Of a stretch of 64,000 bases of DNA, positions 2,108-39,121 are shown piece after piece. The stretch comes from Candidatus Edwardsbacteria bacterium (GTDB lineage: Bacteria; Edwardsbacteria; AC1; EtOH8): NCBI GenBank assembly GCA_020053305.1, contig JAGVNJ010000018.1, positions 1,910 to 65,909 of the forward strand, written 5' to 3'. The notes beneath the pieces were generated by a model. That model was not told the origin of the DNA, ran no database searches, and saw nothing but the letters and a program-made list of their open reading frames with translations. The first letter of the stretch is position 1; every line of letters begins with the position of its first letter. The position numbers and the translations under genes were made by a program.

Positions 2108-3616
2108 GTGAAGCAATCAAATAAAAACACCCTCAGATCAACCATTGTAATAATTTCAGGATTGGCCTTGCTGGCCGGTTGCGCTCACCGGGGCCGGCCG
2201 GAAGCTTTTGTTCAACAGACCGCTGTTGCCGCCGCCGACAGTTTTAATCTGCGGCGGGAGTCGCTGCAGCAGGCCATTGATTCCATCCTGTCCGATACCC
2301 TGCTGTTCCAGTCCAACCGGGCGGTGTACATCATCTCCCTGGACCCGGAGCGGGAGATCTATTCCCTGAACCGTTCCAGCCTGATGATACCGGCCTCGGT
2401 CAACAAGCTGTTCGTCAGCGCCGCGGCCCTCCGCCAACTGGGCGTCAACTACAGCTTCCGCACCGCGGTCTACGGCGACAGCATCGAAAACCCGGGAAGG
2501 ATAAAAGGGGATCTGTACCTGAAGGGCTTCGGCGACCCGGAGCTGAAGACCGCCGACCTGGAGGCCCTGGCTTTCCGTCTGAGGGCCATGGGGCTGAAAC
2601 AGGTGTCCGGGGATCTTGTCGCCGATGCCGGCTATTTTGATACCACCAGCTTCGGCTACGGCTGGATGTGGGACGAGGGCCCCTACGCCTACAATGCCCC
2701 GATATCGGCCCTGTCGCTTAACCGCAACACCTTTGAGATAGGGCTGCGTCCCGGGGCCAAGCCGGGCCGCAGGCCGCAGGCCGAGCTCAATCCCCGAGCA
2801 GCCTATCTATCCATTGAAAACAAAGCGACCACCATAAAGCCCGGGAACAAAGCCCGAATCAAGGCCGACCGCTCTTTCGCCGGGGACGGCGACCTGGTCA
2901 GCATCACCGGGACCATGACGGCCGATGAGGGCGTCAACTACCTGGTCCGGACGGTTACCAATCCCGCGCTGTATTGCGGCACGGTCTTTCGGGAAGCGCT
3001 GGCCGCCAACGGCATCAAGATACTGGGGACGGTCAAAAGCGGGATGGTACCATCCGATAAGCCGGAATTGATCCGGCATGCTTCGCCTCCGCTGTACCAG
3101 ATAATCCGCGGCATGAACAAGGAGAGCGATAATTTTACCGCCGAGATGATCTTCCGCCAGCTGGGCAGCGGACAGGATTCCCTTTCGTCCGATCCGGCAA
3201 AAAACAGCAAGTTGACGGAGATGCTTAAAAATATGGGCTTTGGCGAGGAAAGCTTCCGGATTGCCGACGGCTCCGGCCTGTCGCGCTATAACCTGTGCTC
3301 GGCCGAACAGCTGGTCAAGGTGCTTTCGGAAACCTACCGCGACCCGGCCCTCCGGCCGGAGCTGCTGGCCTCGCTGCCCATCGCCGGCGCCGACGGCACT
3401 TTGGCCCGGCGGCTGATGGGGGAAGAGTATAAGGGGATCATCCGGGCCAAGACCGGGACCCTGACCGGAGTCTCCTCGCTGGCCGGGTTTGTGTCCGGCC
3501 CCGATAACAAAACCTACTGTTTCGCCATCATGTTCAATAATTACACCGCCAAGGCCAACCAGGTCCGGGCCATTCAGGATTCCATCGTGGCCCGGCTGGC
3601 CAGGGCGGCGCCCTGA
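2108..3616 (+). CDS. dacB: D-alanyl-D-alanine carboxypeptidase/endopeptidase, PBP4 (S13) family
   Basis: SxxK (PASVNKL), SDN (KESDNF) and KTG (RAKTGTL) motifs are present. There is an N-terminal signal/lipobox-like segment (LLAGC) and a GTG start. Confidence 0.8.
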   Translation: MKQSNKNTLRSTIVIISGLALLAGCAHRGRPEAFVQQTAVAAADSFNLRRESLQQAIDSILSDTLLFQSNRAVYIISLDPEREIYSLNRSSLMIPASVNKLFVSAAALRQLGVNYSFRTAVYGDSIENPGRIKGDLYLKGFGDPELKTADLEALAFRLRAMGLKQVSGDLVADAGYFDTTSFGYGWMWDEGPYAYNAPISALSLNRNTFEIGLRPGAKPGRRPQAELNPRAAYLSIENKATTIKPGNKARIKADRSFAGDGDLVSITGTMTADEGVNYLVRTVTNPALYCGTVFREALAANGIKILGTVKSGMVPSDKPELIRHASPPLYQIIRGMNKESDNFTAEMIFRQLGSGQDSLSSDPAKNSKLTEMLKNMGFGEESFRIADGSGLSRYNLCSAEQLVKVLSETYRDPALRPELLASLPIAGADGTLARRLMGEEYKGIIRAKTGTLTGVSSLAGFVSGPDNKTYCFAIMFNNYTAKANQVRAIQDSIVARLARAAP

Positions 3617-3704
3617 CTTTTTAATGCAGTTTATTTTCTTGAACCCAGATTCAAAGCTAATGATGTCCAAAATAAACCGGAAAATGTAAAATAATAATCA
3701 GGAG

Positions 3705-5246: not shown

Positions 5247-6641
5247 ATGGACTGCAATAAAAAATACCGCGCCTTCAGCATGATATTATACGGCCTGATC
5301 GGGACGGCGGTTTTCTGGATCGCGGACACCCTCATCGACACCTACCTGTTCCGGGAGGGCAGCCTGGTTCAGCAGGTACTGCACCCCGAACCGATGGAGA
5401 TATATTTCCGGGGAGCCATCGGAGCGCTGTTCGTCATATTCGGGATACTGGGCCAGCGGCTTTTGAACCAGCGGAGGAAGGCCGAATGCCTGCTGGAGCA
5501 GACCAACCGGGAGCTGGAGGAAAAAATATCGCAGCGGACCGCCCAGCTGGAGGAGGTCAATCAAAAACTCAAGGACGAACTGGAGGACCGGAGCCGGAAC
5601 GACGAGAGGATCAACTATCTGAGCTTTCACGACAAGCTGACCGGGCTGTACAACCGGGCCTACTTCGAGGAGGAGCTGAGCCGGTTGGACAACGAAAGGT
5701 TTTTTCCCATCAGCCTGATAGTCGGGGACGTCAACGGGCTGAAGCTGATCAACGACGCCTTCGGGCACCACCAGGGGGACAAGTTCCTGATCCGGACCGC
5801 CGAGATCATCAAAAAGCAGTGCCGCAGGAGCGACCTGGTGGCCCGCTGGGGCGGCGACGAGTTCGCGGTGCTGCTGCCCAAAACCGGGGCCGAGACCGCC
5901 ATCCGGATCTGCGAGAAGATACGTCAGGGCTGCAGCCGCAGCCCCAAAAAACCCATCCAGCTGAGCGTGGCCCTGGGCACCGCCACCAAGCAGGACAAGA
6001 ACCAGGACATCGACCGGGTGCTCAAAAAGGCCGAGGACTGGATGTACCAGTACAAGATGATGGAGGGCAAGACCGTCCGGAGCCGGATACTGAGTTCTTT
6101 AGAGAAAACGTTGTGGGAGTCGGCCTACGAGACCGAGGAACATACCAAGCATCTGCAGAAATATCTTCTGAAAATGGCCCTGGAGCTGAAACTGCAGGAT
6201 TCCGAGATAGACGATCTGATGCTGCTGGCCTCGTTTCATGATGTGGGAAAGATCGCCATATCCAATGCCATCCTTTCCAAGCCCGGCCAGCTGAACCCCA
6301 AGGAGTGGGAGGCGGTCAAGAAGCATTCCGATATCGGCTACCGGATCGCCCTGGCCACCCCGGAGATATCGGCGGTGGCCGACCAGATCCTGCATCATCA
6401 CGAATGGTGGGACGGCACCGGATATCCCCGGGGGCTCAAGGGCGAGAAGATCCCGCTGGCCTCGCGGCTGCTGAGCATCGCCGACGCCTACGATGTCAAG
6501 CGGAACATCCGCCCCTATAAAACGGCCAAGACCAGGACCCAGGCCCTCAAGGAGATCAGGGAGGCCTCCGGTAAACAGTTCGATCCCCGGCTGATAAAAT
6601 TATTTCTCAAGCTGGAATCGGCCGAAAAAGGAAAGGGCTGA
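5247..6641 (+). CDS. Membrane-anchored GGDEF diguanylate cyclase fused to an HD-GYP phosphodiesterase domain
   Basis: There are two N-terminal TM helices and a coiled coil. RWGGDEFAVLLP is a canonical GGDEF. HD (FHDVGK) and GYP (DGTGYPRGL) motifs are present. Confidence 0.85.
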   Translation: MDCNKKYRAFSMILYGLIGTAVFWIADTLIDTYLFREGSLVQQVLHPEPMEIYFRGAIGALFVIFGILGQRLLNQRRKAECLLEQTNRELEEKISQRTAQLEEVNQKLKDELEDRSRNDERINYLSFHDKLTGLYNRAYFEEELSRLDNERFFPISLIVGDVNGLKLINDAFGHHQGDKFLIRTAEIIKKQCRRSDLVARWGGDEFAVLLPKTGAETAIRICEKIRQGCSRSPKKPIQLSVALGTATKQDKNQDIDRVLKKAEDWMYQYKMMEGKTVRSRILSSLEKTLWESAYETEEHTKHLQKYLLKMALELKLQDSEIDDLMLLASFHDVGKIAISNAILSKPGQLNPKEWEAVKKHSDIGYRIALATPEISAVADQILHHHEWWDGTGYPRGLKGEKIPLASRLLSIADAYDVKRNIRPYKTAKTRTQALKEIREASGKQFDPRLIKLFLKLESAEKGKG

Positions 6642-6656: not shown

Positions 6657-9600
6657 ATGGTCCCGGTATTAGGGAACAGTCCGGAGATGCCCCGGGTAAA
6701 CTTTTTTAAAATGGCGGAGCGCGTTATGGAAAGATTGAAAGATAAGATCAGATCGGCCCGGCAGCCGCTGTTGATATTCTTCCTGCTGTCGCTGAGCATC
6801 GTGGCGGTCGGCTGGCTGTACTCGTTTTACCACCTCCGGGAGCACCGGAAGGAGATAACCCGGGACCTGGAGTCGGTGGCCAGCCTTAAGGAGAACCAGA
6901 TCGACAGCTGGCTGGCCGAAAGGATGTCCGATGCCCAGAACATAATAGACAACCCCTACATAGGCGAAAGGGTGGGGCAGCTTTTCCGGGAGCCCTACTC
7001 CGAAAACATCGGGTTGGACCGGCTCAAATGGATGCGCTCCCTGCAGAATCTTAAGCAGTACCAGAACGTTCTGCTGCTGGACATAAAGGGGCGGATCAGG
7101 ATGCAGACCGGAAAAACGGTGCATAAGATAGGTCCGGAAACCGGCACCCTGGCCGGAAAAACGGTGATCACTGGGCAGGCCAGTTTCAGCGATTTCTATT
7201 ACTGCACCGAGTGCCAGACGGTGCATCTGGATGTTTTGGCCCCGGTGATCCATTACAACCGCCAACGGGATTCGGTGGTCGGGGTGATCATCCTGCGGAT
7301 CGAGCCCGAGAATCTGCTATACCCTCTCATTCAGCAGTGGCCGGTGCCCAGTAAAAGCGCCGAGACCTATCTGGTCAGAAGGGACAACGGGGAAGTGCTG
7401 TACCTTACCGAGCTGAGGTTCCAGAAAGGCTCAGCCGCCAAATTAAGGCATCCCCTAAGCCGTAAAGAGCTTCCCGAGGTGATGGCCATCAACGGCAGCA
7501 CCGGCAATGTTACGGCGGTGGATTACCGCGGCAAAAAAGTGTACGCCTATCTTCACAATATGCCGGCCAATCCCTGGTATATCATCGCCAAGACCGACCG
7601 GCGGGAGGCTGAGGCCATTGCCTGGTTCATCGGATTCATCGTGATAGTATTGATCATCGCCGCCGGTGGGGTAATAGGGTCCCTGTGGAACCGCCAGCAA
7701 AAGAGTTATTTCCGCAATCAACTGGAACAGGAACGGGAGAGGCAGGCCCTGTCCAAACATTATGAATATCTTACCAAGTATGCCAACGACATCATCCTGC
7801 TGTTGGACGAGGACCTGAACATCCTGGAGGCCAATGACAAGGCGGTCGCGGCCTATGGCTATTCCCGGGAAAAGATACTGACCCTGGATATTTACCGCCT
7901 GAGAAAATCGGACTCCCGGTCCTCGGTGGACGACCAGTACCGCAAGGTGGTGGACGATAACGGCCTGCTTTTCGAGGCCATTCACAAGCGCAGCGACGGC
8001 TCCACCTTTCCGGTGGAGGTCAGCGCCCGGATGATGGAGGTGGAGGGCCAGAAATATTTTCAGATTATAATCCGGGACATCTCCGAACGGAAGCGCGACC
8101 AGGAAATCCTGCAATCACAGAAGGAGGAGTTGGAGGCCGCCAACGAAGAACTGATGGTGACCAACCAAAAACTACTGTCCTCCGAGCAGGAATTGATCCA
8201 GGCCGACGAAGAACTCCGGTCCCAGCTGGCCGAAGTGCAGGAGAGCCGGGATGCCCTGGAGAGGAGCCAGACCTCGCTGAAGCGGATGGAGGAGATGTTC
8301 GACCAGTTCCTGAAATACAGCCCGGTCTACGTGTTCTTCAAGGACGAGAATATCCGGCCGCTCAAGTTGAGCCGCAACTACGAGCAGATGCTGGGCCGGC
8401 CTCTGCAGGAGCTGCTGGGCAGGAACATGGACGAGCTGTTCCCCTCGGACCTGGCCAAGGGCATGGTGGAGGACGACAAAAAGATCCTGCGGGAGGGCAA
8501 GGTGATCGAGGTGGATGAGGAGTTCAACGGCCGGCATTATCGGACCATCAAATTTCCCATCCTGCAGGAGGGCCGGCCCAAAATGCTGGCCGGATTCACC
8601 ATGGACGTCACCGAACAAAAACGTTCGGAGGAAGCCCTCCGGAAAAGCGAGGAGCGTTTCAAAAAGCTGATCGACACAGCCTACGACGCCATTTTTATTG
8701 CCGATGCCGAAACGGGAATGATCATAGACGCCAATGCTCAGGCTGGCGTGCTGTTGGGCATGCCGGTGGAGCAAATAAAGGGTATGCACCAGTCACAACT
8801 CCACCCCTCCGAACTTGCCGAACATTACCGGGAGGTTTTTCGCAGACATCTGGAAAGCGGCCGGGCCATCACCGAAAATCTATATGTTTGCCGCAAGGAC
8901 GGCGCCAGGATCCCGGTCGATATAAGCGCCAGCGTCATCGAACTTGAGGGTCGCAGGGTGAATCAAGGCGTCTTTAGGGATATCACCCAGCGAAAGCGTT
9001 CGGAGGAGGCTCACCGGAAAAGCGAGGAGCGCTTTAGACAGGTGGCCGAAAGCGCCGGAGAGTGGATATGGGAGGTCAACATGGAGGGATTGTATACCTA
9101 TTCCAGCCCGGCGGTGGAGAAGATTTTGGGATACAGCGCTCAGGAGATAGTGGGGCAAAAACATTTCTTCGATTTATTCGCTCCGGAGATAAGGGAGGAG
9201 TATAAAAAGATCGCCTTTGAGGTCTTTGCCAAAAAGGAATCCTTCAAAGGATTCATAAATATCAATATAAACAAGAACGGCGAAAAGGTCTTATTGGAGA
9301 CCAGCGGTCTGCCTGTTTTTGGCAATGACGGGGCGCTCAATGGGTACTGCGGAGCCGATACTAATGTCACCGAGCGGGAAAAGGCGGAGGAGCAGATAAA
9401 GGCCTCCCTCAAGGAGAAGGAGGTCCTGCTGCGGGAGATACACCACCGGGTGAAGAACAACCTGCAGGTGATATCCAGCCTGCTGAACCTGCAATCCGGA
9501 TACATAACCGACCAGCGGGCGCTGGAGCTTTTCAAGGAGTGCCAGACCCGGGTGCGTTCCATGTCCCTGATCCATGAAAGGCTTTATCAGTCGGAGGCCC

Positions 9601-12440: not shown

Positions 12441-12530
12441 ACCAGGCAGGGAACCCCGAAATTGTTTAAAATGTTTAAAGGGCTTAAACGTTTTAAACGT
12501 CTGAAACGTTTTTAACTTTCAAGGAACAAG

Positions 12531-13847
12531 ATGCCATATATTGCCAATACGCCGGAAAATATTCAGGAGATGCTGGCCCGGATAGGGGTCAAGGATTTCA
12601 AAGAACTAATTTCGGACATACCCCAGGATATCCTCTTAAAATCCAAACTGGATCTGCCGCCAGCGCTGTCCGAGATGGAAGCGGCCAAAGAGATCTCCGG
12701 GATCTCCAAAACCAATGGACCGGCCGGGGAGATGATATCCTTCCTGGGCGGGGGGGCTTACGATCATTATATCCCCGCAGCAGTGGACCACATCCTGTCC
12801 CGCCCGGAGTTCTATACCGCCTACACCCCCTATCAGGCCGAGGTCAGCCAGGGCACCCTGCAGGTCATCTGGGAGTTCCAGAGCCTGATCACCGCATTGA
12901 CCGGCATGGACGCCGCCAACGCCTCGATGTACGACGGAGCCACCGCCCTGACCGAGGCCGGGCTGATGGCCTGCGGCCATACCAAGCGCAAAAAACTGGT
13001 CATATCCAGCACCGTCCATCCGGAATACCGCCAAGTGCTGAAAACCTACTGCCGGGGGTTGAACATCGAGATAATCGAGGTCCCCTGGAAGGACGGAGTC
13101 ACCAGCCTGGAGGAACTAGAAAAAACCATTGACGATAGAACCGCGGCCGTCCTGATCCAGCATCCCAATTTCTTCGGCGCGCTGGAGCCGGTCGAAGAGA
13201 TATCCGACCTCGTCCATAAGAAAGGCGCGCTGTTGGTGGTCTCGGCCGATCCGATCTCGCTGGGCATCTTGAAAACGCCCGGGTCTTACGGGGCGGATAT
13301 CGTCACCGGCGAGGGACAGCCGTTGGGGATTCCCCTGGGGCTGGGCGGGCCATACCTGGGGCTGCTGGCCGCCAAGAATGCGTTGCTGCGGCTGATGCCG
13401 GGCAGGATCGTGGGCCTGACCACCGACAGCCAGGGCCGGGAGGGGCTGGTGCTGACCATGCAGGCCAGGGAACAGCATATCCGCCGGGAAAAGGCTTCCT
13501 CAAATATCTGCTCCAACCAGGCCCTGTGCGCCCTGGCGGCCACCGTCTACCTGTCGCTGATGGGCCGGGACGGCATCAAACAGGTGGCCGAGCTTTGCCT
13601 GCAGAAAAGCCACTATCTGGCGCAGCAGCTGGAGCCGGCCTTCAAGGCACCGTTCTTCAAGGAATTCGTCTATAAGACCAAAAGGCCGACCGCTCAAGTC
13701 CTGGCAGAACTAAAGCGGAAGGGCATCATCGCCGGGCTGGATATGGGCCGATTCTTTAAGCAATTGGAGGGCCACCTGCTGATCTCGGTCACCGAGAAGA
13801 GGACCCGGGGGGAATTGGACCTGCTGGTCCAGGCGCTGACAAAATAA
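12531..13847 (+). CDS. gcvPA: Glycine dehydrogenase (decarboxylating) subunit 1
   Basis: The N-terminus MPYIANTPENIQEMLARIGV is typical of GcvPA. The length is 438 aa. Confidence 0.9.
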   Translation: MPYIANTPENIQEMLARIGVKDFKELISDIPQDILLKSKLDLPPALSEMEAAKEISGISKTNGPAGEMISFLGGGAYDHYIPAAVDHILSRPEFYTAYTPYQAEVSQGTLQVIWEFQSLITALTGMDAANASMYDGATALTEAGLMACGHTKRKKLVISSTVHPEYRQVLKTYCRGLNIEIIEVPWKDGVTSLEELEKTIDDRTAAVLIQHPNFFGALEPVEEISDLVHKKGALLVVSADPISLGILKTPGSYGADIVTGEGQPLGIPLGLGGPYLGLLAAKNALLRLMPGRIVGLTTDSQGREGLVLTMQAREQHIRREKASSNICSNQALCALAATVYLSLMGRDGIKQVAELCLQKSHYLAQQLEPAFKAPFFKEFVYKTKRPTAQVLAELKRKGIIAGLDMGRFFKQLEGHLLISVTEKRTRGELDLLVQALTK

Positions 13848-32014: not shown

Positions 32015-32347
32015 ATGGCCGCCAGGTATTACGGGGTTAAAAAAGTTATGGAGAAGGCCCAGAGGATCGGGCCAGCCACCGAAAAGATGTTCTATGTGAA
32101 GAACGACGAGGTGCTGGTGGGCATCGTCAAGGGAAGCAAATACACCATAGCGGCCGACCTGACCGACAAGAAGGAATATTTCGCTTTTTATGAAGCCTGC
32201 CAGAAGGGCCATTGGGTGGATATCGAACTGTACCGGATGCCCCGGGAACAGGCCGAAAACTGCCCGGACGAAGGACGATTTACCCTCGCGGACCTGAAGG
32301 CGCTGGATAAAAAAGCCCCGCCCAGGAGCAGGACCAAGAAAAAATAA
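32015..32347 (+). CDS. Small hypothetical protein between gyrB and gyrA with a basic C-terminal tail
   Basis: It is 110 aa. Codon usage is consistent with neighbours. There are no recognisable motifs. Confidence 0.45.
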   Translation: MAARYYGVKKVMEKAQRIGPATEKMFYVKNDEVLVGIVKGSKYTIAADLTDKKEYFAFYEACQKGHWVDIELYRMPREQAENCPDEGRFTLADLKALDKKAPPRSRTKKK

Positions 32348-32363
32348 TATAAAGGATATATAG

Positions 32364-34841
32364 ATGGCACTTGAGAGAGAGAGAATAATCGGCTGCGAGA
32401 TCGAGGAGGAGATGAAAACCTCCTACCTGAACTATTCCATGTCGGTGATCGTGGGCCGGGCGCTGCCGGATGTCAGGGACGGCCTGAAGCCGGTGCACCG
32501 CCGGATACTGTACGCCATGAGCGAGCTGGGCATGGCCCATAACAAGCCCTATAAGAAGAGCGCCCGCATCGTGGGGGAGGTGATGGGTAAATTCCATCCC
32601 CATGGCGATCAGGCCATCTACGACTCCATGGTGAGGATGGCTCAGGATTTCTCGCTGCGCTACATGCTGGTGGACGGCCAGGGCAACTTCGGCTCGGTGG
32701 ACGGCGATCCGCCGGCCGCCCAGCGCTACACCGAGGCCAGGCTGTCCCGGATCTCGGCCGAAGTGCTCAAGGATATAGATAAGGACACCGTCAAGTTCGT
32801 GGACAACTACGACGGGTCGCTTCAGGAGCCCTCGGTGCTTCCCTCGCTGTTGCCCGGCCTGCTGGTCAACGGCTCCTCGGGGATCGCGGTGGGCATGGCC
32901 ACCAATATACCGCCCCACAACCTGGGCGAGGTCTGCGACGCCGTCACCGCCCTGATCGACGAGCCGGAGCTGAAGCCGGAGAAACTGCTGAAGATAGTCA
33001 AGGGTCCGGATTTTCCCACCGGCGGCATGATCATGGGGGTCTCCGGGATCCGGGACGCCTACCAGACCGGCCGGGGCAAGGTGGTCATCCGGGGCAAGGT
33101 GATGGTGGAGACCGCCAAGAGCGGCAAGGAATACATCATCATCTCCGAGCTGCCCTACGAGGTCAACAAGGCCAGCCTGATAGGGAAGGTGGCCGAGCTG
33201 GTGCGGGACAAGAAGATCGACGGGATCGCCGACATCAACGACGAATCCGACCGGGACGGCATGAGGGTGGTGATCACCATGAAGCGGGACAGCGATCCCC
33301 GGGTGACCATCAACCAGCTGTACCAGCACACCCAGCTGCAGAACAGCTTCGGGGTGATCATGCTGGCCCTGGTGGACGGGGTCCCCAAGGTGCTGAACCT
33401 GCATCAGGTGCTGAACCATTTCATCGACTTCCGGGTGGAGGTGGTCACCCGGCGCACCAAATACGAACTGGCCCAGGCCGAGAAACGGGCCCACATCCTG
33501 GAGGGCCTGAAGATAGCCATCGAGAACATCGACGAGGTGGTCAGGATAATCAAGAAATCGGCCAACGTCGAGGCGGCCAAGGAATCATTAAAGAAGAAGT
33601 TCAAGCTCTCCGATGAACAGGCCCAGGCCATATTAGACATGACCCTCAAGCGGCTGACCAGCCTGGAGACCAAGAAGATCGAGGAGGAGTACACGGAGCT
33701 GATAAAGCTGATATCCAAGCTGAAGGGGATACTGGAGAGCAAACGCCGGCTGATGGGCGTCATCCGGGAGGAGATCGCCGAGCTGAAGAAGAAGTACGGC
33801 GACGAGCGCCGCACCGAGATCCACGCCGCGGCCGAGGAGAAGTTCTCCATCGAGGACCTGATAGTCGACGAGGAGATGGTAATCACCATCAGCCATGCCG
33901 GGTACATCAAGCGCCTGTCGGTAACGGCCTACAAGCGGCAGGGTCGGGGCGGCAAGGGGGTGACCGGCATGAAGACCAAGGACGAGGATTTCGTGGAGGG
34001 GATGTTCATCGCCTCCACCCACCATTACATCCTGTTCTTCACTGATAAGGGCCGCTGCTACTGGCTCAAAGTCTACGAGGTTCCGGAGGGAGGCCGGGCC
34101 ACCAAGGGCCGGCAGATCAGCAACATTCTGGAGCTGAAGGCCGACGAGAAGATCGCCGCCTATATCGCGGTCAAGGAATTCGACGACCAGCATTTCGTGG
34201 TGATGGCCACCAGCAGCGGGGTGATCAAGAAGACCGCCCTGTCGGTATTCTCCAATCCCCGCAAGGCCGGCATCATCGCCGCCTCGGTGGACGACACTGA
34301 TCATCTGATAGAGGCCAAGCTGACCGACGGGACCGAGGATGTCATCCTGGTCACCCGCCAGGGGCAGGCCTGCCGCTTCCACGAATCGGACGTCCGCTCC
34401 ATGGGCCGGACCGCCGGCGGGGTACGGGGCATCACCCTGGAGAAGAAGGATTACGTGATCGGGATGGTGGTGGTCAAGCGGGAGGGCAGCCTGCTGACCA
34501 TCTGCGACCGGGGCTACGGCAAACGCAGCGATATCGCCGATTACCGGGTGACCCGGCGGGGCGGCAAGGGCGTCATCAGCATGAAGCTCACCGACAAGAC
34601 CGGCGAACTGGTGGCGGTCAAGGAGGTGGTGGACAGCGACGAATTGATGATCATCTCGACCGAGGGCCAGGTGATACGTCTGACCCTCAAGAACGTCAGG
34701 GTGATGGGCCGGGCCACCCAGGGGGTGCGCCTGATCAATCTGGACGGCAAGGACAAGGTGGTGGATGTGGCCCGTCTGGCAGCCAAGGATGACGAGGAGA
34801 ATGGGGATAATGGAGATAACGGGGAACCCGAAAATCAGTAA
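32364..34841 (+). CDS. gyrA: DNA gyrase subunit A
   Basis: The N-terminal [21 protein letters not shown] with the active-site Tyr region is present. GyrA-box-like C-terminal beta-pinwheel repeats are present. The C-terminal tail is acidic. Confidence 0.95.
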
Positions 34842-34850
34842 TAATTGCCT

Positions 34851-34876
34851 GAGCCGCTCTTTTAAAGGAGCGGCTC
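34851..34876 (+). terminator. Perfect hairpin downstream of gyrA
   Basis: GAGCCGCTC-TTTTAAAG-GAGCGGCTC followed by A/T-rich sequence. Confidence 0.55.
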
Positions 34877-35020
34877 ATAAATTTTAATGGTCGGTAACTG
34901 TTTAAGCGATGCCGGAATGCACCGGGCCAAGCAACAGGATCGTGCCCAGATCATGTATCAATTATTATTCTGGCAATTACATAGATTAAAATCTTTGCCC
35001 GTTTTTTTGAACGTTCTTGT

Positions 35021-35103
35021 TGTCATGCCCGTGAAACTTGTCCTCGACACAGATCGGGGAACGGGCATCCAGGACTGGATTCCCGCATTCGCGGGAATGA
35101 CAC
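35021..35103. repeat. Hairpin/MITE-like repeat, copy A (TTGTCATGCC...CTGGATTCCCGCATTCGCGGGAATGACA)
   Basis: Terminal inverted segments GTCATGCCCG / CGGGAATGAC are present. The internal palindrome is ATTCCCGC-ATTC-GCGGGAAT. It is related to copy B at 36103-36292. Confidence 0.55.
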
Positions 35104-35152
35104 ATTGAGTAATTTATTTTGCCGAAGCAATAAAAGGATTGGATTAATAATC

Positions 35153-35491
35153 ATGACCGGAGATTGGATAGAAGGATTTAGCGGAGCGGTCACCGTTTGC
35201 GACAAGGAAGGGATCATCCTTTACATGAACGATAAGGCCGTTACCACCTTCGCCAAGTACGGCGGACGGGAACTGATCGGCCGGAACCTCTTCGACTGCC
35301 ACCCTGAGCCGGCCCGGTCCAAGCTTAAAACCATGATGGATGAGCAGCAGACCAATATCTACACCATTGGGAAGAACGGGGTGAAGAAGCTGATCCACCA
35401 AAGCCCCTGGTATAAAAACGGGGTATACCAGGGTTTCGTGGAATTGTCCCTGGAGATCCCCTTCCAGATGCCGCACCATGAAAGAAAATGA
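35153..35491 (+). CDS. Small PAS-like domain protein
   Basis: It is 112 aa from the ATG at 35153. The track ORF begins at a TTG inside the repeat. There are no output domains. Confidence 0.45.
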   Translation: MTGDWIEGFSGAVTVCDKEGIILYMNDKAVTTFAKYGGRELIGRNLFDCHPEPARSKLKTMMDEQQTNIYTIGKNGVKKLIHQSPWYKNGVYQGFVELSLEIPFQMPHHERK

Positions 35492-35564
35492 TTTTTCTGC
35501 TTGCTTTTTATAATGCATCGTAGTATAGTTCAAAGGTAAATATTCCCAAAACATAACTGGAGGT

Positions 35565-35990
35565 ATGAAGATGGAAGATCAAATCGGTGCCGGTTTGCTG
35601 GCGGCGATGGGCGTGGTCTGGGTGTTCGTGGGACTGGCCGCCTACCTGTTCTCAGCCTTTGCCTTGATGGCCATTGCCAAAAAGACCAACACTCCCAACG
35701 GATGGCTGGGCTTTATTCCCATCGGCAATGTGTATCTGATGACCCAGATAGCCAAATTGCCCTGGTGGTGGACGCTGTCGATCCTGTTAGCCATCATTCC
35801 GATACTGGGAGCAATCGTCATGATGGTGGCCATGATCTACATCTGGTGGAAGATCGCCGAGAGGTTGGGCAAGCCCGGGTGGTGGAGCCTGCTCTTGTTG
35901 ATACCGATCGCCAATATCGTGATAATCGCCATTCTGGCCTGGGGCAAAGATACTCCGGGCAAGGATACTCCAGCCCCGGCCCAGGTCTAA
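35565..35990 (+). CDS. Small integral membrane protein with an internally duplicated GW..(F/L)IPI(G/A)N(V/I) motif
   Basis: It has 3-4 TM helices. NGWLGFIPIGNVYLM and PGWWSLLLLIPIANIVII are internal repeats. A good RBS (GGAGG) is present. Confidence 0.55.
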   Translation: MKMEDQIGAGLLAAMGVVWVFVGLAAYLFSAFALMAIAKKTNTPNGWLGFIPIGNVYLMTQIAKLPWWWTLSILLAIIPILGAIVMMVAMIYIWWKIAERLGKPGWWSLLLLIPIANIVIIAILAWGKDTPGKDTPAPAQV

Positions 35991-36021
35991 ATAATTTCCC
36001 GCCAAGTTAGATCCATTTTAA

Positions 36022-36059
36022 GCCGTTCTGTCGATAGCACAGAACGGCTTTTTATTTTT
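36022..36059 (+). terminator. Rho-independent terminator
   Basis: GCCGTTCTGT-cgatagc-ACAGAACGGC followed by TTTTTATTTTT. Confidence 0.7.
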
Positions 36060-36102
36060 GGACTCTTGGTAACTCGGTAATTGAATAGGTCATTAATACC
36101 AG

Positions 36103-36292
36103 TTGTCATGCCATTCCCGCATCATGTGCCCACGGCCCCGCTGCAAGCGGAGCCTCGACTTCCTCCTTCGTTCACACTACGGCGGACAGGTTGTCGGGGC
36201 GTGGTGGGATAAATTCCGAATGGCATCCATGCCTGGATTCCCTCTCCCCGCTTTCGCGAGGACATGTTTCGAGGGAATGACAAATCGCTTTA
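36103..36292. repeat. Hairpin/MITE-like repeat, copy B (TTGTCATGCC...CCTGGATTCCC...GAGGGAATGACA)
   Basis: It has the same termini as copy A with a longer internal region containing several palindromes (CCGCTGCAAGCGG). The track ORF 36103-36303 inside it is judged spurious. Confidence 0.5.
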
Positions 36293-36330
36293 TAGCAAGG
36301 TGAAACGTCTAGAATTTTGATTATATATCC

Positions 36331-38433
36331 ATGTTTCTTTTATTGACATCATCGGCGCATAAAAAGTATAATCCTTTCATGAAAATAATCCTGATAATCC
36401 TCATAACGGCCCTGTCCTTTTGGTCGCTGGCAAGCGAAAAGGAAAGGTTCGGCCATAAGCTGTGGCTGGGCTTTGCCGGAATACGGCTGTTGGTCATCAT
36501 CTTTTTCGCTTTGACCCTATGGGGAATTTCCCTTGACCTTAATATTTTTGCCAGACAACAAAACAGCATAGCCCTGGTAGTCGATGCCAGCCGCAGCATG
36601 ACCCAGCGTGACGGCCGGACGGCCAGTCGTTTTGACCGGGCGATGGACCTCCTGGGCAAAATATCCCCCCGGCAGGATATGAAAAAATATATTTATGACC
36701 AGAACGGCCTGGGGGAGGCCGGGCCTGGCAGGCCGGTTGGGTATTCCGACACCACCGACCTGATAAAGATTATCAAAGCGGCGGTCTCCTTAAAGCCGAA
36801 AGCGGTGGTGCTCTTATCGGACGGAAATCATAATGCGGCGGGAAACCCGGCATCCGAAATAGCCGGCGGGGATGTCCCGATATACGCCATCGGCGTCGGC
36901 CCGGAGGCTGATATTCAATATCCTTCGATATCCCGGATAAATTCACCGGAGGAGATTTCACCGGGGCAAAAAGCCTCAATAGAGCTGCAGCTGGACAATG
37001 TCAAGGACAGGGGAAGGCTGGTCCTGAGCGACGACCGGGGAAGAACCCTGCAGCAGGCGGAATACTCTTCCGGTAAAAGAACAATCGCCCTGGAAGCGAC
37101 CCCTTCTGCTTTGGGGCTCATTCGTTATACGGTGAATATGCTGTCCGGGGGCGATACCATCGACCAAAAGAATGTGGTAATAAACGTAAAAAAAGACCGG
37201 ATCAATGTTCTCTACCTGTCAGGCGATCCGGGGTGGGACCTGCGGTTCATGCACCAGGCGACGGCCAATGCCAAAAACATCGTATTAGATCCCTATCTTT
37301 GGAAGAATAACAACTGGTCAGGCATTGGCAACCAGGAAAAAACCAAACAGGATTTGGGTGATAAGCTAAAAACGGCCGATGTGATAATCCTGCATGATGT
37401 CACGGAAAACATGCTGGACAGAGGCCTGGAGGGCGATATCGCCGCCAGGGTGCAGAACGAAGGGTGCGGACTTTTGATAATGGGCCTGGATTGGCTCTGG
37501 GCGTTCCGCAGCCGTCAGCTGTATGCCATCGCACCCATAATGCCTTCGTCCAACAGCGGGCTCACCGAGGGAACCATCTCGCTGTCAAAATATTTTCTTG
37601 CCTCCGGCATGTTCGATCAGTCCCTGACCGAACAGATCGCTAAACGGATTGTAAAATATCCTCCATTGAACATAAGGGGGAAGGTCAAACAGTTGGCCAC
37701 CGATGCGGTACTGTTTGGAAGCATTGAAAATAAGAAAGAGAACATTCCCTTTTGGGGTCGTCGCTATCTCGGTCGGGGACGCGTAATGCAGATAACGACA
37801 TCATCGCTATGGCCCTGGAAAATGACCGCCCAGGGGATGCTGGAAGACAGCCTGGTCTATTCCGCATTGATCACCGGGAGCTTTCGCTGGCTGGCCGGCA
37901 TGGAGGAACAGAACATAACCCTATCCACCGATCGAAGCTTTTATTATCCCGACGAAAAGATCATTTTCCAGGGAACCAGGCCGGCGGAAAACAGCCGAGA
38001 CCAAGGCATGGAATGGTCGGTTGAGATCAAAGGGAGAAATGGCTTCCGGCAAAAACGGAGAATGTCCCATTGGGGACCGGGGCGCTATATATTCGACGCC
38101 GGGGCCATGCCGCCGGGGGAATACGGTTATGAATCTATCCTTTCCTCTGACGGCAAAAAACTGGCAGATCTCTCCGGCAGGTTCTGGGTGGAGCCATTCC
38201 CTTATCAGGAAAAGGAGCGTTTCCAGAACCGGGAATTGTTAAGTGAGATATCCCGGATCACTCAGGGCAGATATTGGGATATAGATTCTTTGGCCGGCAA
38301 TAATTGGCTGGATCAGGTCAAGCCACAACCAGCGGCAGAAAAGAAAACCCCGATATTCTGGCTGCCCCTGCTGATAATGGCCTTTCTGCTGACCGGGGAA
38401 TGGTATTGGCGGCGTCGCTCCGGCTTGAGCTGA
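36331..38433 (+). CDS. BatA-like membrane protein: N-terminal double-TM, von Willebrand A domain, large extracytoplasmic region, C-terminal TM
   Basis: The VWA MIDAS motif VVDASRSM is present, with two N-terminal TM helices and a C-terminal TM (IFWLPLLIMAFLL). Confidence 0.55.
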   Translation: MFLLLTSSAHKKYNPFMKIILIILITALSFWSLASEKERFGHKLWLGFAGIRLLVIIFFALTLWGISLDLNIFARQQNSIALVVDASRSMTQRDGRTASRFDRAMDLLGKISPRQDMKKYIYDQNGLGEAGPGRPVGYSDTTDLIKIIKAAVSLKPKAVVLLSDGNHNAAGNPASEIAGGDVPIYAIGVGPEADIQYPSISRINSPEEISPGQKASIELQLDNVKDRGRLVLSDDRGRTLQQAEYSSGKRTIALEATPSALGLIRYTVNMLSGGDTIDQKNVVINVKKDRINVLYLSGDPGWDLRFMHQATANAKNIVLDPYLWKNNNWSGIGNQEKTKQDLGDKLKTADVIILHDVTENMLDRGLEGDIAARVQNEGCGLLIMGLDWLWAFRSRQLYAIAPIMPSSNSGLTEGTISLSKYFLASGMFDQSLTEQIAKRIVKYPPLNIRGKVKQLATDAVLFGSIENKKENIPFWGRRYLGRGRVMQITTSSLWPWKMTAQGMLEDSLVYSALITGSFRWLAGMEEQNITLSTDRSFYYPDEKIIFQGTRPAENSRDQGMEWSVEIKGRNGFRQKRRMSHWGPGRYIFDAGAMPPGEYGYESILSSDGKKLADLSGRFWVEPFPYQEKERFQNRELLSEISRITQGRYWDIDSLAGNNWLDQVKPQPAAEKKTPIFWLPLLIMAFLLTGEWYWRRRSGLS

Positions 38434-38449
38434 ACCTGAAAGGCAAACC

Positions 38450-39121
38450 ATGATACCGCTCAAGGACGACATACCCTCATCCAGCTTTCCGGTGGCCAAT
38501 ACCCTGCTGATCGCCCTCAACGGCCTGGTCTTTCTCTATGAGGTCGGCCTGGGTCGGGATGTTTCTCAATTCATCCAGCGATTCGGATTGGTGCCGGTCA
38601 ATGTATTGAGCCTGGGGATCCCGGGCTGGGGAAGCATTTTTTCCTCCATGTTCATCCACGGCGGCTGGGAGCACATCATCGGCAATATGCTGTATCTTTT
38701 CATCTTCGGAGACAACGTGGAGGATGCTTTGGGGCATGCCAAATATCTGTTCTTTTATCTGTTGTGCGGCATAGCCGCTGCCTGGGGGCATATATTATTC
38801 AATACTCAATCGGCCATCCCCACAGTGGGGGCCTCCGGAGCGGTGGCCGGAGTGCTGGGGGCCTATCTGCTGTTGTATCCCCGGGCCGGGGTGCTGACGG
38901 TGATACCCCTGGGCATCTTCATCCGGATAATAAAGGTTCCGGCGGTCCTGGTGCTGGGGTTCTGGATAGTGCTGCAGTTATTGTTCGGGCTGATCAGCCT
39001 GCCCCTGCCGGGCGAGCAGTCCGGAGGGATCGCCTGGTTCGCCCATATCGGGGGCTTCTTTGCCGGGATGCTGCTGGCCAGCCCATTTATTCGCCGGAGA
39101 AATAAAGGGTCTTTTATTTAA
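38450..39121 (+). CDS. Rhomboid-family intramembrane serine protease
   Basis: GASGAVAGVLGAY (GxSG catalytic Ser) and FAHIGGF (catalytic His) are present in a polytopic protein. Confidence 0.8.
   Translation: MIPLKDDIPSSSFPVANTLLIALNGLVFLYEVGLGRDVSQFIQRFGLVPVNVLSLGIPGWGSIFSSMFIHGGWEHIIGNMLYLFIFGDNVEDALGHAKYLFFYLLCGIAAAWGHILFNTQSAIPTVGASGAVAGVLGAYLLLYPRAGVLTVIPLGIFIRIIKVPAVLVLGFWIVLQLLFGLISLPLPGEQSGGIAWFAHIGGFFAGMLLASPFIRRRNKGSFI

Follow-up and report, generated by a model that had tools for sequence, protein, structure and literature searches.

SRM-type hairpin doublets, probable members of the Ssn nuclease target family, beside resident genes downstream of gyrA in a Candidatus Edwardsbacteria genome

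Two small repeats lie downstream of gyrA in the 64-kb stretch of Candidatus Edwardsbacteria DNA that we analyzed (the window), and we consider it very probable that both copies, A (35020-35103) and B (36103-36284, hairpin part), are tail-to-tail doublets of SRM hairpins of the Ssn nuclease target family that were gained after the split from the relatives, the two enclosed genes (PAS and DUF5684) being resident. We base this reading on the observed anatomy of the repeats, their family identity, the conservation of their structure, their gain relative to the relatives, and the recurrence of the doublets in other genomes. The features of the locus are as follows.

32364..34841, plus strand: gyrA, the anchor for synteny and taxonomy
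34850-34877: terminator-like hairpin after gyrA
34870..35146: site-A block, 277 bp, holding copy A (blastn boundaries against relative L122)
35022..35072, plus strand: H1, two-tier SRM-type hairpin (hairpin scan, covariance model, fold)
35075..35102, minus strand: H2, simple near-canonical NTS/SRM hairpin, TGTCATTCCCGCGAATGCGGGAATCCAG (motif scan, blastn)
35153..35491, plus strand: resident gene for a 112-aa PAS-domain protein (PAS_9 at 1.1e-6 in Pfam; synteny)
35565..35990, plus strand: resident gene for a DUF5684 membrane protein (two stretches in Pfam; synteny); the gene may start at 35571
36020-36050: terminator-like hairpin after the DUF5684 gene, followed by a T-run
36054..36333: site-B block, 280 bp, holding copy B, with the DUF5684 terminator on one side and the next promoter on the other
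36075..36097, plus strand: 23-nt motif CGGTAATTGAATAGGTCATTAAT, abutting the H3 end of copy B
36105..36230, plus strand: H3, SRM-type hairpin (hairpin scan)
36130..36205: 76-nt nested insertion in the H3 inner hairpin, with its own inverted ends CCACGGCCCCG...CGGGGCGTGG
36232..36283, minus strand: H4, two-tier SRM-type hairpin (hairpin scan, covariance model)
36343-36372: promoter of the gene after copy B

The two related repeats of the original prediction are real. A strict hairpin scan (GTCAT, a 6-nt arm, a loop, the reverse-complement arm, and ATCC) finds exactly 4 hairpins in the 64 kb, every one of them inside copy A or B; 200 shuffles averaged 0.03. Each copy holds two convergent hairpins of the form GTCAT-stem-loop-stem-ATCC, one per strand (plus for H1 and H3, minus for H2 and H4), with a spacer of only ~2 nt between the paired hairpins. 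The predicted common sequences are all present: one terminus, GTTGTCATGCC, at 35019-35029 and 36102-36112; the other, TTCG[C/A]GGGAATGACA, at 35088-35102 and 36268-36282; and the internal motif GGCATCCAnGnCTGGATTCCC at 35064-35084 and 36222-36242. The 4 occurrences of TGTCATKCC in the window coincide with the four ends of copies A and B, and the outer ends of the repeat pair are inverted (TGTCAT...ATGACA). What had been described as one long palindrome per copy is instead a doublet of two convergent hairpins in each; the proposed ATTCCCGC-ATTC-GCGGGAAT palindrome exists in copy A and is missing from copy B, whose hairpin part stops at 36283/36284 rather than at 36292. As ssDNA, copy A folds at -22.9 kcal/mol (z = -4.7). 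A and B align best in opposite orientations (score 53; the highest null score was 27), the likeness is confined to the hairpin part with no extension into the unrelated flanks, and the two copies differ in their partner hairpins.

The gene calls for the two small genes and the terminator-like sites hold by Pfam and terminator scan, and both copies are intergenic, small (83-181 bp), and non-coding. The PAS, GyrA, and DUF5684 proteins of the window gave no match in exact-protein searches. Rfam yields no family at the gathering threshold over the whole window, or at E <= 1 over the locus. The ORFs across copy B are translated hairpins and were rejected as small proteins; a CRISPR array was rejected too, since neither an array nor regular spacing is present; a literature search for peptide strings encoded by the hairpins gave no match. 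A spurious ORF derived from the hairpins also spans 34887-35108 and ends in WIPAFAGMT; hairpin-derived ORFs of this kind clutter protein databases.

The GIY-YIG nuclease SsnA targets NTS/SRM hairpins as ssDNA (Chenal 2025, Nat Commun, PMC11893778), mutagenesis of the Neisseria NTS identified the 5' GTC and 3' C as determinants of cleavage and binding, and the published SRM search motif reads HGTCWY N(0-2) YYVSBRH N(0-5) WNVSBRG N(0-2) RNCYNB (PMC11893778). All four hairpins retain both determinants, GTC immediately before the stem and C immediately after it, and each carries GTCAT on the 5' side and ATC on the 3' side. H2 is the sole match to the search motif in the window and differs from the published 28-nt NTS consensus at 2 of 28 positions; blastn matches over exactly H2 are found in Neisseria gonorrhoeae, Azospirillum, and Halioglobus. 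It also holds the dRS3 palindrome ATTCCC-N8-GGGAAT, and the perfect 20-bp palindrome ATTCCCGCATTCGCGGGAAT at 35079-35098 (0.04 expected by chance) is found in H2 only, H1, H3, and H4 having variant arms. These other three fail the search motif because their loops are enlarged to 26, 28, and 103 nt.

H1 reads GTCAT GCCCGT (GAAACTTG TCCTCGA cacaga TCGGGGA) ACGGGC ATCCAG, the bracketed 28-nt loop containing an inner hairpin, and H4 reads GTCAT TCCCTC (GAAACATG TCCTCGC gaaa GCGGGGA) GAGGGA ATCCAG, with compensatory changes relative to H1 in both stems. Scores against a covariance model (R1 for H1) are 73.6 bits (E 1e-17) for H1 and 71.9 bits for H4, each hairpin being itself in the training set. 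H3 reads GTCAT GCCATTC ... GAATGGC ATCCAT; its 103-nt loop comprises an inner hairpin plus ATAAATTCC, split by the 76-nt nested insertion, and the same hairpin has a 27-nt loop in L240 and a 4-nt loop in L202. The insertion is absent from the L240 doublet (96% identical over 36206-36283), a search for it elsewhere found no other copy, and H3 with the insertion may be dead. In L240 (UBA4780) the H4 hairpin sequence is identical to ours. The 23-nt motif beside H3 abuts the same doublet in L202, with 20 of 23 bases identical (0 such matches expected by chance). A proposed counterpart in the flank of copy A was rejected, its 7 mismatches being at chance level.

A comparison of the gyrA neighborhood with those of relatives suggests when the doublets arrived. 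GyrA is 97% identical to the window protein in L122, 93% in L121, and 80% in L258/L259; identities of 97, 93, and 93% give the tree ((window, L122), L121). Downstream of gyrA, the order PAS-DUF5684-large protein-rhomboid is kept without hairpins in L122, L121, and L258/L259, and blastn homology to L122 runs unbroken through both small genes (35147-36053, 84%). At site B the closest relative has 13 bp where the window has 280 bp; at site A, L122 has 739 bp, including a 230-aa GGDEF gene present in both closest relatives, where the window has the 277-bp block, in which tblastn finds no GGDEF remnant. From these sequence comparisons, we take it that the doublets entered the lineage after the split from the nearest sampled relatives, copy B in an insertion of ~270 bp between a terminator and the next promoter, and copy A as part of a block that replaced the GGDEF gene. 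The inserted blocks exceed the doublets by ~100-190 bp, and the doublet alone may therefore not be the unit that moved. Against plasmids, blastn of the site-B block gave no match, and the site-A block matched only through H2.

The same comparison bears on the idea that the repeats are the ends of a composite, MITE-mobilized unit by which the two genes, PAS and DUF5684, would have reached this locus. The repeats do bracket both genes, and their outer ends are inverted as such a unit would have them. Nonetheless, relatives with both genes in place but no repeats refute the predicted cassette, and we regard it as highly improbable for further reasons as well: copies A and B have differing partner hairpins and unrelated flanks, no target-site duplication is seen at the repeat ends, and a non-systematic look beside the repeats recognized no transposase-type ORF. 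As for the suggestion that the locus is recombination-prone, the replacement of the GGDEF gene at the copy A site gives it circumstantial support.

Outside the window, the two-tier form of H1, H3, and H4 is widespread. A 22-nt two-tier pattern is found in at least 117 genome stretches from about 18 phylum-level groups among the matches listed, including Patescibacteria, Planctomycetota, Chloroflexota, Nitrospirota, Atribacterota, and Edwardsbacteria/UBP2, with the consensus GTCATTCCCGC-GAAACTTG-TCCTCGA-loop-TCGGGGA-GCGGGAATCCAG; the core GTCATTCCCGC-N4-GCGGGAATCC is found in at least 120 viral-contig stretches. Scans of viral contigs with the two-tier pattern or with the doublet junction had no match (0 each). 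In metagenomes, a scan for the exact 46-nt H4 gave 0 matches, and one for a broader 21-base half of H4 gave 14, mostly in unrelated organisms. Both stems have covariation support: pairing is maintained in 96.4% of cells (33-57% in slid controls), 7 pairs have changed at both positions, and none of 500 shuffles reaches the observed values. Part of the outer-stem signal is built in, since only hairpins with a closed stem passed the filter and columns 5-26 were fixed by the search pattern; this bias does not touch those inner-stem positions that vary (columns 27-30, paired with 40-43). The unpaired GTCAT, GAAAC-TG, and ATCCAG are conserved base for base across phyla. In 32 of 50 two-tier hairpins the inner stem has a T.G pair, where the opposite strand would have A.C; this hints indirectly at strand specificity. 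Of 50 two-tier hairpins taken from other genomes, not one fits the published SRM motif. Judging by these sequences, the two-tier form is best described as an uncatalogued structural variant of a known repeat family, to which H1, H3, and H4 belong.

The doublet arrangement recurs too. An inverted partner lies downstream of 40 of 87 two-tier hairpins (tail-to-tail), compared with 3 head-to-head and 2 in the same orientation. Near-identical doublets (88-96% identity) occupy other, unrelated loci in UBP2 MAGs (UBA2255, UBA4780), and a simple doublet is present in the Edwardsbacteria relative L256. The prediction that the repeats might represent a dispersed REP-like family is thus borne out, and the family can be named: the very widespread Ssn-related motifs, to which the NTS and dRS3 repeats of Neisseria belong.

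At two loci the hairpins directly adjoin a candidate enzyme. In L246 the order is two-tier hairpin, 97-aa GIY-YIG gene, inverted simple SRM, and in L237 a GIY-YIG gene lies within a cluster of 7 hairpins; both proteins are single-domain (Pfam GIY-YIG, 7e-18 and 2e-16, respectively) and candidate members of cd10448, the GIY-YIG class associated with SRMs. Such linkage was found in the flanks examined at only 2 of ~131 two-tier loci, and we found no Ssn-like gene in the 64-kb window or in ~110 kb of relatives' DNA. As ssDNA, hairpins of the SRM family are both bound and cleaved by SsnA, a small GIY-YIG nuclease; we infer that i) the hairpins described here would be live substrates of an Ssn encoded elsewhere in the genome; ii) Ssn, or an SRM-ssn-SRM unit, may spread the hairpins; and iii) by analogy with Neisseria, flanking a segment on both strands could alter the recombination of incoming ssDNA. 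More speculatively, the two-tier hairpin may be a distinct SRM class that usually travels in tail-to-tail doublets and spreads horizontally among phyla as a mobile non-coding element, moved in trans by a GIY-YIG nuclease of ~100 aa that would act as a minimal transposase-like enzyme, the gains at sites A and B, beside the lost GGDEF gene, being its fresh footprints; we hold this only tentatively.

The hairpins might instead be inert relics, SRM-family sequences from horizontally acquired DNA that are now decaying in a genome without Ssn. The lack of an Ssn gene in the window and the relatives' fragments, the disruption of H3, and the low density of doublets (2 in the 64-kb window, 1 in ~110 kb of relatives' DNA) are what one would expect of relics, and 19% of surveyed genomes with more than 200 SRMs have no detectable ssnA (PMC11893778). 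On the other hand, the stems and GTC/C flanks are intact in H1, H2, and H4, compensatory changes maintain the pairing of both stems, and the identity of H4 to the UBA4780 copy, in surroundings 96% identical, argues for recent spread or constraint; we therefore view decay as possible but doubtful. Function at the level of transcription, as REP-like terminators or nuclease-independent mRNA stabilizers, could draw on the stability and intergenic position of the hairpins and on the frequent inner-stem T.G, a good G.U pair in RNA. Yet copy B, lying after a canonical terminator and before the next promoter, is probably little transcribed, the hairpins have no following T-run, each doublet presents one hairpin per strand, Rfam has no match, and cross-phylum conservation of the unpaired segments would be unexpected for terminators; we judge this explanation unlikely.

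Since dRS3 has been cited as a phage recombinase target, and a parallel with REPINs and BIMEs has been drawn as well (PMC11893778), the hairpins could also be recombinase sites, as dRS3 is for the Piv/IS110-type enzyme of a filamentous prophage, or REPINs moved by a RAYT (Y1) transposase. The perfect dRS3 palindrome in H2 fits the former, and the doublet layout resembles REPINs and BIMEs. Nevertheless, the genes recognized directly adjoining hairpins are GIY-YIG genes (L246, L237), with no integrase or Y1 transposase noticed there in a non-targeted look, the window repeats neither enclose nor adjoin a prophage or other large mobile element, the inserted blocks measuring only 277 and 280 bp, and no REP hallmarks were seen; we think either mechanism very unlikely. 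By definition, REPs have a GTAG-type 5' tetranucleotide and RAYT linkage.

The preferred reading, SRM doublets of the Ssn target family, can be set against known systems. As in the NTS/SRM and SsnA system, the window repeats are intergenic on both sides of genes (an 'NTS-gene-NTS' layout), and elsewhere the two-tier form occurs in SRM-GIY-YIG-SRM units (L246, L237); the differences are i) the enlarged loops of H1, H3, and H4, with their conserved inner hairpin; ii) the absence of an ssn gene from the window and the relatives' DNA, together with a low window copy number; and iii) the host, candidate phylum Edwardsbacteria/TA06, which lies outside the Pseudomonadati where Ssn homologs are mainly found (PMC11893778). 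With Neisseria dRS3 and NIMEs, the locus shares ATTCCC-N8-GGGAAT and repeats that flank short intergenic blocks near variable regions, but there are hundreds of dRS3 copies per genome as opposed to two sites in the window, and the RS sequences between dRS3 pairs are absent from our doublets. REPs, BIMEs, and REPINs are likewise dispersed, short extragenic palindromes read as ssDNA hairpins, form inverted doublets, and are associated with one small 'domesticated' nuclease gene that has its own repeats on either side; the REP enzyme, however, is an HUH/Y1 transposase rather than a GIY-YIG nuclease, and REPs differ by species whereas the two-tier sequence is conserved across phyla. Like MITEs such as the Correia elements of Neisseria, the window repeats are small, non-coding, intergenic, and nested, with inverted ends; unlike MITEs, they show no target-site duplication, and their 'terminal inverted repeats' are complete hairpins. 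We know of no related transposase-bearing parent.

We wish to emphasize the consequences for the family as a whole. The published SRM pattern cannot match the two-tier form, so that the existing census probably undercounts the family, likely most strongly among uncultured phyla, in which two-tier hairpins are common. The two-tier hairpin provides a defined, covariation-supported candidate substrate for asking how a nuclease of ~100 residues reads a more complex ssDNA fold, a question relevant to the suggested application of Ssn enzymes as tools for ssDNA. Finally, the locus itself offers a clean before-and-after comparison with repeat-free relatives, both for the spread of the repeats and for their possible promotion of gene loss.

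The two related repeats that bracket a PAS gene (35153-35491, +) and a DUF5684 gene (35565-35990, +), copy A (35020-35103) and copy B (36103-36284), have the predicted common ends (left GTTGTCATGCC, right GGGAATGACA) and the predicted common internal motif GGCATCCAnGnCTGGATTCCC. They had also been read as long imperfect palindromes; a scan for GTCAT, a 6-nt arm, a loop of <=140 nt, the exact reverse-complement arm and ATCC instead found four hairpins in the 64-kb window (0.03 in shuffles), all inside copies A and B, which makes each copy a convergent pair of hairpins (a doublet):

H1, 35022-35070, + strand, copy A, loop of 28 nt
H2, 35077-35101, - strand, copy A, loop of 4 nt
H3, 36105-36228, + strand, copy B, loop of 103 nt
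H4, 36235-36281, - strand, copy B, loop of 26 nt

The ATCCAG tails of copy A nearly touch (...ATCCAG-GA-CTGGAT...), and the junction of copy B reads ...ATCCAT-GC-CTGGAT.... All four occurrences of TGTCATKCC in the 64 kb mark the ends of the two copies, one at each end, and the palindrome ATTCCCGCATTCGCGGGAAT is found once in the window (0.04 expected). The best alignment of the copies, which ends at the hairpins, pairs copy A in reverse orientation with the right part of copy B (score 53, null maximum 27). The inner hairpin of H3 carries a 76-nt insertion (36130-36205) with inverted ends of its own, CCACGGCCCCG...CGGGGCGTGG, which is missing from an otherwise 96% identical doublet in a UBA4780 genome; no further copy was found among the fetched loci and viral contigs.

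At least 120 viral-contig stretches contain the core GTCATTCCCGC-N4-GCGGGAATCC, some with a typical Neisseria repeat landscape. The 28-nt Neisseria repeat NTS, CGTCATTCCCGCGMAVGCGGGAATCYRG, takes in the dRS3 repeat and has been generalised to Ssn-related motifs (SRM); SsnA, a single-domain GIY-YIG nuclease, binds and cuts NTS as single-stranded DNA, on one strand only, the key for binding being the C directly 3' of the palindrome and for cleavage the three bases 5' of it; ssn genes usually have their own motif on their flanks, and NTS-gene-NTS layouts reduce Neisseria transformation and integration of transforming DNA (Chenal et al. 2025, PMC11893778). Specifically, i) H2 departs from the NTS consensus at 2 positions; ii) H2 alone in the window matches the published SRM motif; iii) in a blastn search with the block around copy A (34870-35146), Neisseria gonorrhoeae, Azospirillum, Halioglobus and Photobacterium matched over H2 alone; and iv) the GTC and C determinants are kept in H1, H2, H3 and H4. 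We conclude that the window repeats are members of a known, recently characterised family, and the original prediction's alternative of a dispersed REP-like family was correct. Open reading frames of 73 codons (34887-35108, +) and 66 codons (36103-36303, +) traverse the hairpins, and the C-terminus of the former, ...WIPAFAGMT, is simply the SRM hairpin translated; frames of this kind are commonly miscalled as genes when MAGs are annotated. One viral contig (L008, 2753-2897) carries 6 tandem 20-nt half-sites (GTCATTCCCGCTTCCCATCC) followed by one complete hairpin, and four other loci (L019, L078, L091, L115) have single half-site repeats akin to these.

H1 and H4 are two-tier: their enlarged loop, GAAAC-W-TG TCCTCG-N-loop-N-CGGGGA, holds a second conserved hairpin, with compensatory differences between the two in both the outer stem (GCCCGT/ACGGGC vs TCCCTC/GAGGGA) and the inner stem (...CGA/TCG... 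vs ...CGC/GCG...). A genome scan with the pattern GTCATKCCCKYGAAACWTGTCC gave at least 117 stretches, about one chance match being estimated, and the hairpin closed in 95 of 119 among the matches listed. Read from record titles, the carriers among the matches listed are Dehalococcoidia and other Chloroflexota; Phycisphaerae and Pirellulales; Thermodesulfobacteriota, Syntrophia and other 'Deltaproteobacteria'; Patescibacteria including Saccharibacteria and Paceibacterota; Nitrospirota, Nitrospinota and Acidobacteriota; Schekmanbacteria, Omnitrophota and Latescibacterota; Vampirovibrionales, Atribacterota and Ignavibacteria; Actinomycetota, Aegiribacteria and Methylomirabilis; Alpha-, Beta- and Gammaproteobacteria; and UBP2. 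In an alignment of 50 distinct two-tier sequences, 96.4% of cells in the two helices were paired (shuffles 87.5%, slid partners 33-57%), 7 pairs had changes on both sides, and none of 500 shuffles reached the observed scores; outer-stem pairing is partly built in by the closure filter and the fixed search pattern, and the variable inner-stem positions, free of this bias, account for most of the double changes. A single inner pair (alignment A4 columns 27/43, for example window 35044/35060) is T.G in 32 of the 50 sequences and C-G in 17; since T.G is A.C on the complementary strand, the full fold would form only on the GTCAT strand, a strand-specific structure. A covariance model recovered H1, H4 and H2 in the window and nothing more, H1 and H4 being members of its training set.

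None of the 50 two-tier hairpins matches the published SRM motif, the hairpins have no match in Rfam, and we were unable to find the two-tier sequence by full-text literature search. Two loci at which an Ssn-like gene is present bear on whether the form is an SRM or a look-alike; both are compact, with a hairpin, a GIY-YIG gene and an inverted hairpin in turn, and in L246 this unit takes up the whole locus. In L246 a two-tier hairpin is directly followed by a 97-aa GIY-YIG gene and then by an inverted simple SRM; in L237 (6950-7650) a GIY-YIG gene of ~100 aa lies within a cluster of seven hairpins, two-tier and three-tier forms among them. The proteins match Pfam GIY-YIG at 7e-18 and 2e-16, and NCBIfam and PDB returned nothing specific for them. 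Both layouts match the published SRM-ssn-SRM arrangement, which argues for the two-tier form being an SRM and not a look-alike. The final codons of the L246 gene (DWIPD) extend into the hairpin, and the three-tier hairpin of L237 lies at 7538-7601.

Among the matches listed, 40 of 87 two-tier hairpins with enough flank have an inverted downstream partner, tail to tail, against 3 with an upstream inverted partner and 2 with a same-orientation neighbour; two-tier hairpins, like REPINs, thus usually come as doublets. Three loci in other genomes have doublets close to those of the window:

L200 (UBA2255), H1-type plus inverted two-tier partner, 88% over 66 nt
L202 (UBA2255), H4-type plus H3-type with 4-nt loop, 92% over 77 nt
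L240 (UBA4780), H3-type with 27-nt loop plus identical H4 hairpin, 96% over 78 nt

These doublets adjoin unrelated genes, and nucleotide similarity to the window is confined to the repeats plus one 42-nt L202 match at window 5631-5672. A 23-nt motif, CGGTAATT(G/A)(A/C)ATAGGTCA(T/A)TAAT, immediately adjoins the H3 end in the window (36075-36097) and again in L202 (477-499, minus strand); its presence beside the same doublet in two genomes suggests that the repeated unit is somewhat larger than the hairpin pair or, alternatively, that the doublet inserts beside a preferred site. Upstream of the L240 doublet (1297-1460), AACTCTGCAAAA...TTTTGCAGAGGT enclose another small palindromic insertion, and these genomes seem to carry nested mini-palindromes of several classes.

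The best GyrA matches carry the label Candidatus Edwardsbacteria or candidate division TA06. Gene order is gyrA-GGDEF-PAS-DUF5684-large protein (679-684 aa)-rhomboid in L122 (GyrA 97%) and L121 (93%), where creatininase follows in L121 and the L122 contig ends before that point, and gyrA-two unknown genes-PAS-DUF5684-689 aa-rhomboid in L258/L259 (80%). Neither an exact scan nor the covariance model found hairpins at these gyrA loci; the relatives keep the two genes and lack the repeats, and this synteny rules out the original proposal that PAS and DUF5684 were mobilised as a two-gene cassette. A window-against-L122 blastn set the block boundaries:

Window blocks compared with L122
Window 32335-34869; L122 357-2879; homologous, 94%
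Window 34870-35146 (277 bp, copy A inside); L122 2880-3618 (739 bp, GGDEF gene inside); replaced, unrelated sequence
Window 35147-36053; L122 3619-4505; homologous, 84%
Window 36054-36333 (280 bp, copy B inside); L122 4506-4518 (13 bp); insertion
Window 36334-39099; L122 4519-7301; homologous, 85%

By GyrA identity (97, 93 and 93%) the window groups with L122, and L121 falls outside the pair, ((window, L122), L121), so the hairpin-free, GGDEF-bearing state is ancestral and both blocks were gained in the window's lineage. The 230-aa GGDEF (diguanylate cyclase) gene between gyrA and PAS in L122 (within 2880-3618) and L121 (within 12443-13222), probably co-transcribed there with PAS, left no remnant at the copy A site detectable by tblastn, which found only paralogues elsewhere (about 35% identity); the window PAS gene thus lacks its former neighbour upstream, and a strong sigma-70-type promoter could not be identified for this gene. 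The GGDEF loss is an association with copy A, not a demonstrated consequence, and the gyrA-PAS interval also differs in L258/L259 and so is itself a variable spot. The gyrB-gyrA spacer (L256 9116-9967, L257 2603-3454) holds different small genes in each relative, one for a TIR_2-domain protein in L256, for instance, and a methyltransferase gene in L123; the gyrase gene neighbourhood is a variable spot in the window's lineage. L256 (GyrA 83%) has a simple SRM doublet elsewhere, between PD40 and NUDIX genes, so this lineage does contain such doublets. At its C-terminus the window DUF5684 protein has an in-frame 15-nt tandem duplication (GGGCAAAGATACTCC / GGGCAAGGATACTCC; 35942-35971) that is absent from L122.

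Copy B lies 3' of a terminator-like hairpin (36020-36050) and 5' of a perfect TTGACA-18-TATAAT promoter (36343-36372), a position more in keeping with a role at the DNA level, or with selfish persistence, than with one in RNA. The mechanical ORF of the 700-aa protein starts at 36331; the promoter and the L122 alignment make the ATG at 36379 its likely start.

Beyond the published description are the predicted two-tier form, with its covariation support; its tail-to-tail doublet organisation, as read from sequence; the occurrence, judged by sequence matches, of near-identical two-tier sequence over about 18 phylum-level groups among the matches listed; and the failure of the published search motif to pick up this form. 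Since the two hairpins of a doublet lie on opposite strands, each strand of the ~1-kb PAS-DUF5684 segment would have a site on both sides, much as in Neisseria, where similarly placed sites lower integration of transforming DNA. Searches by HMM and phmmer, based on Ssn-like proteins from the viral matches, found no Ssn-like gene in the 64-kb window; under this mechanism the organism would have an Ssn and would take up DNA, and the Ssn would move the repeats.
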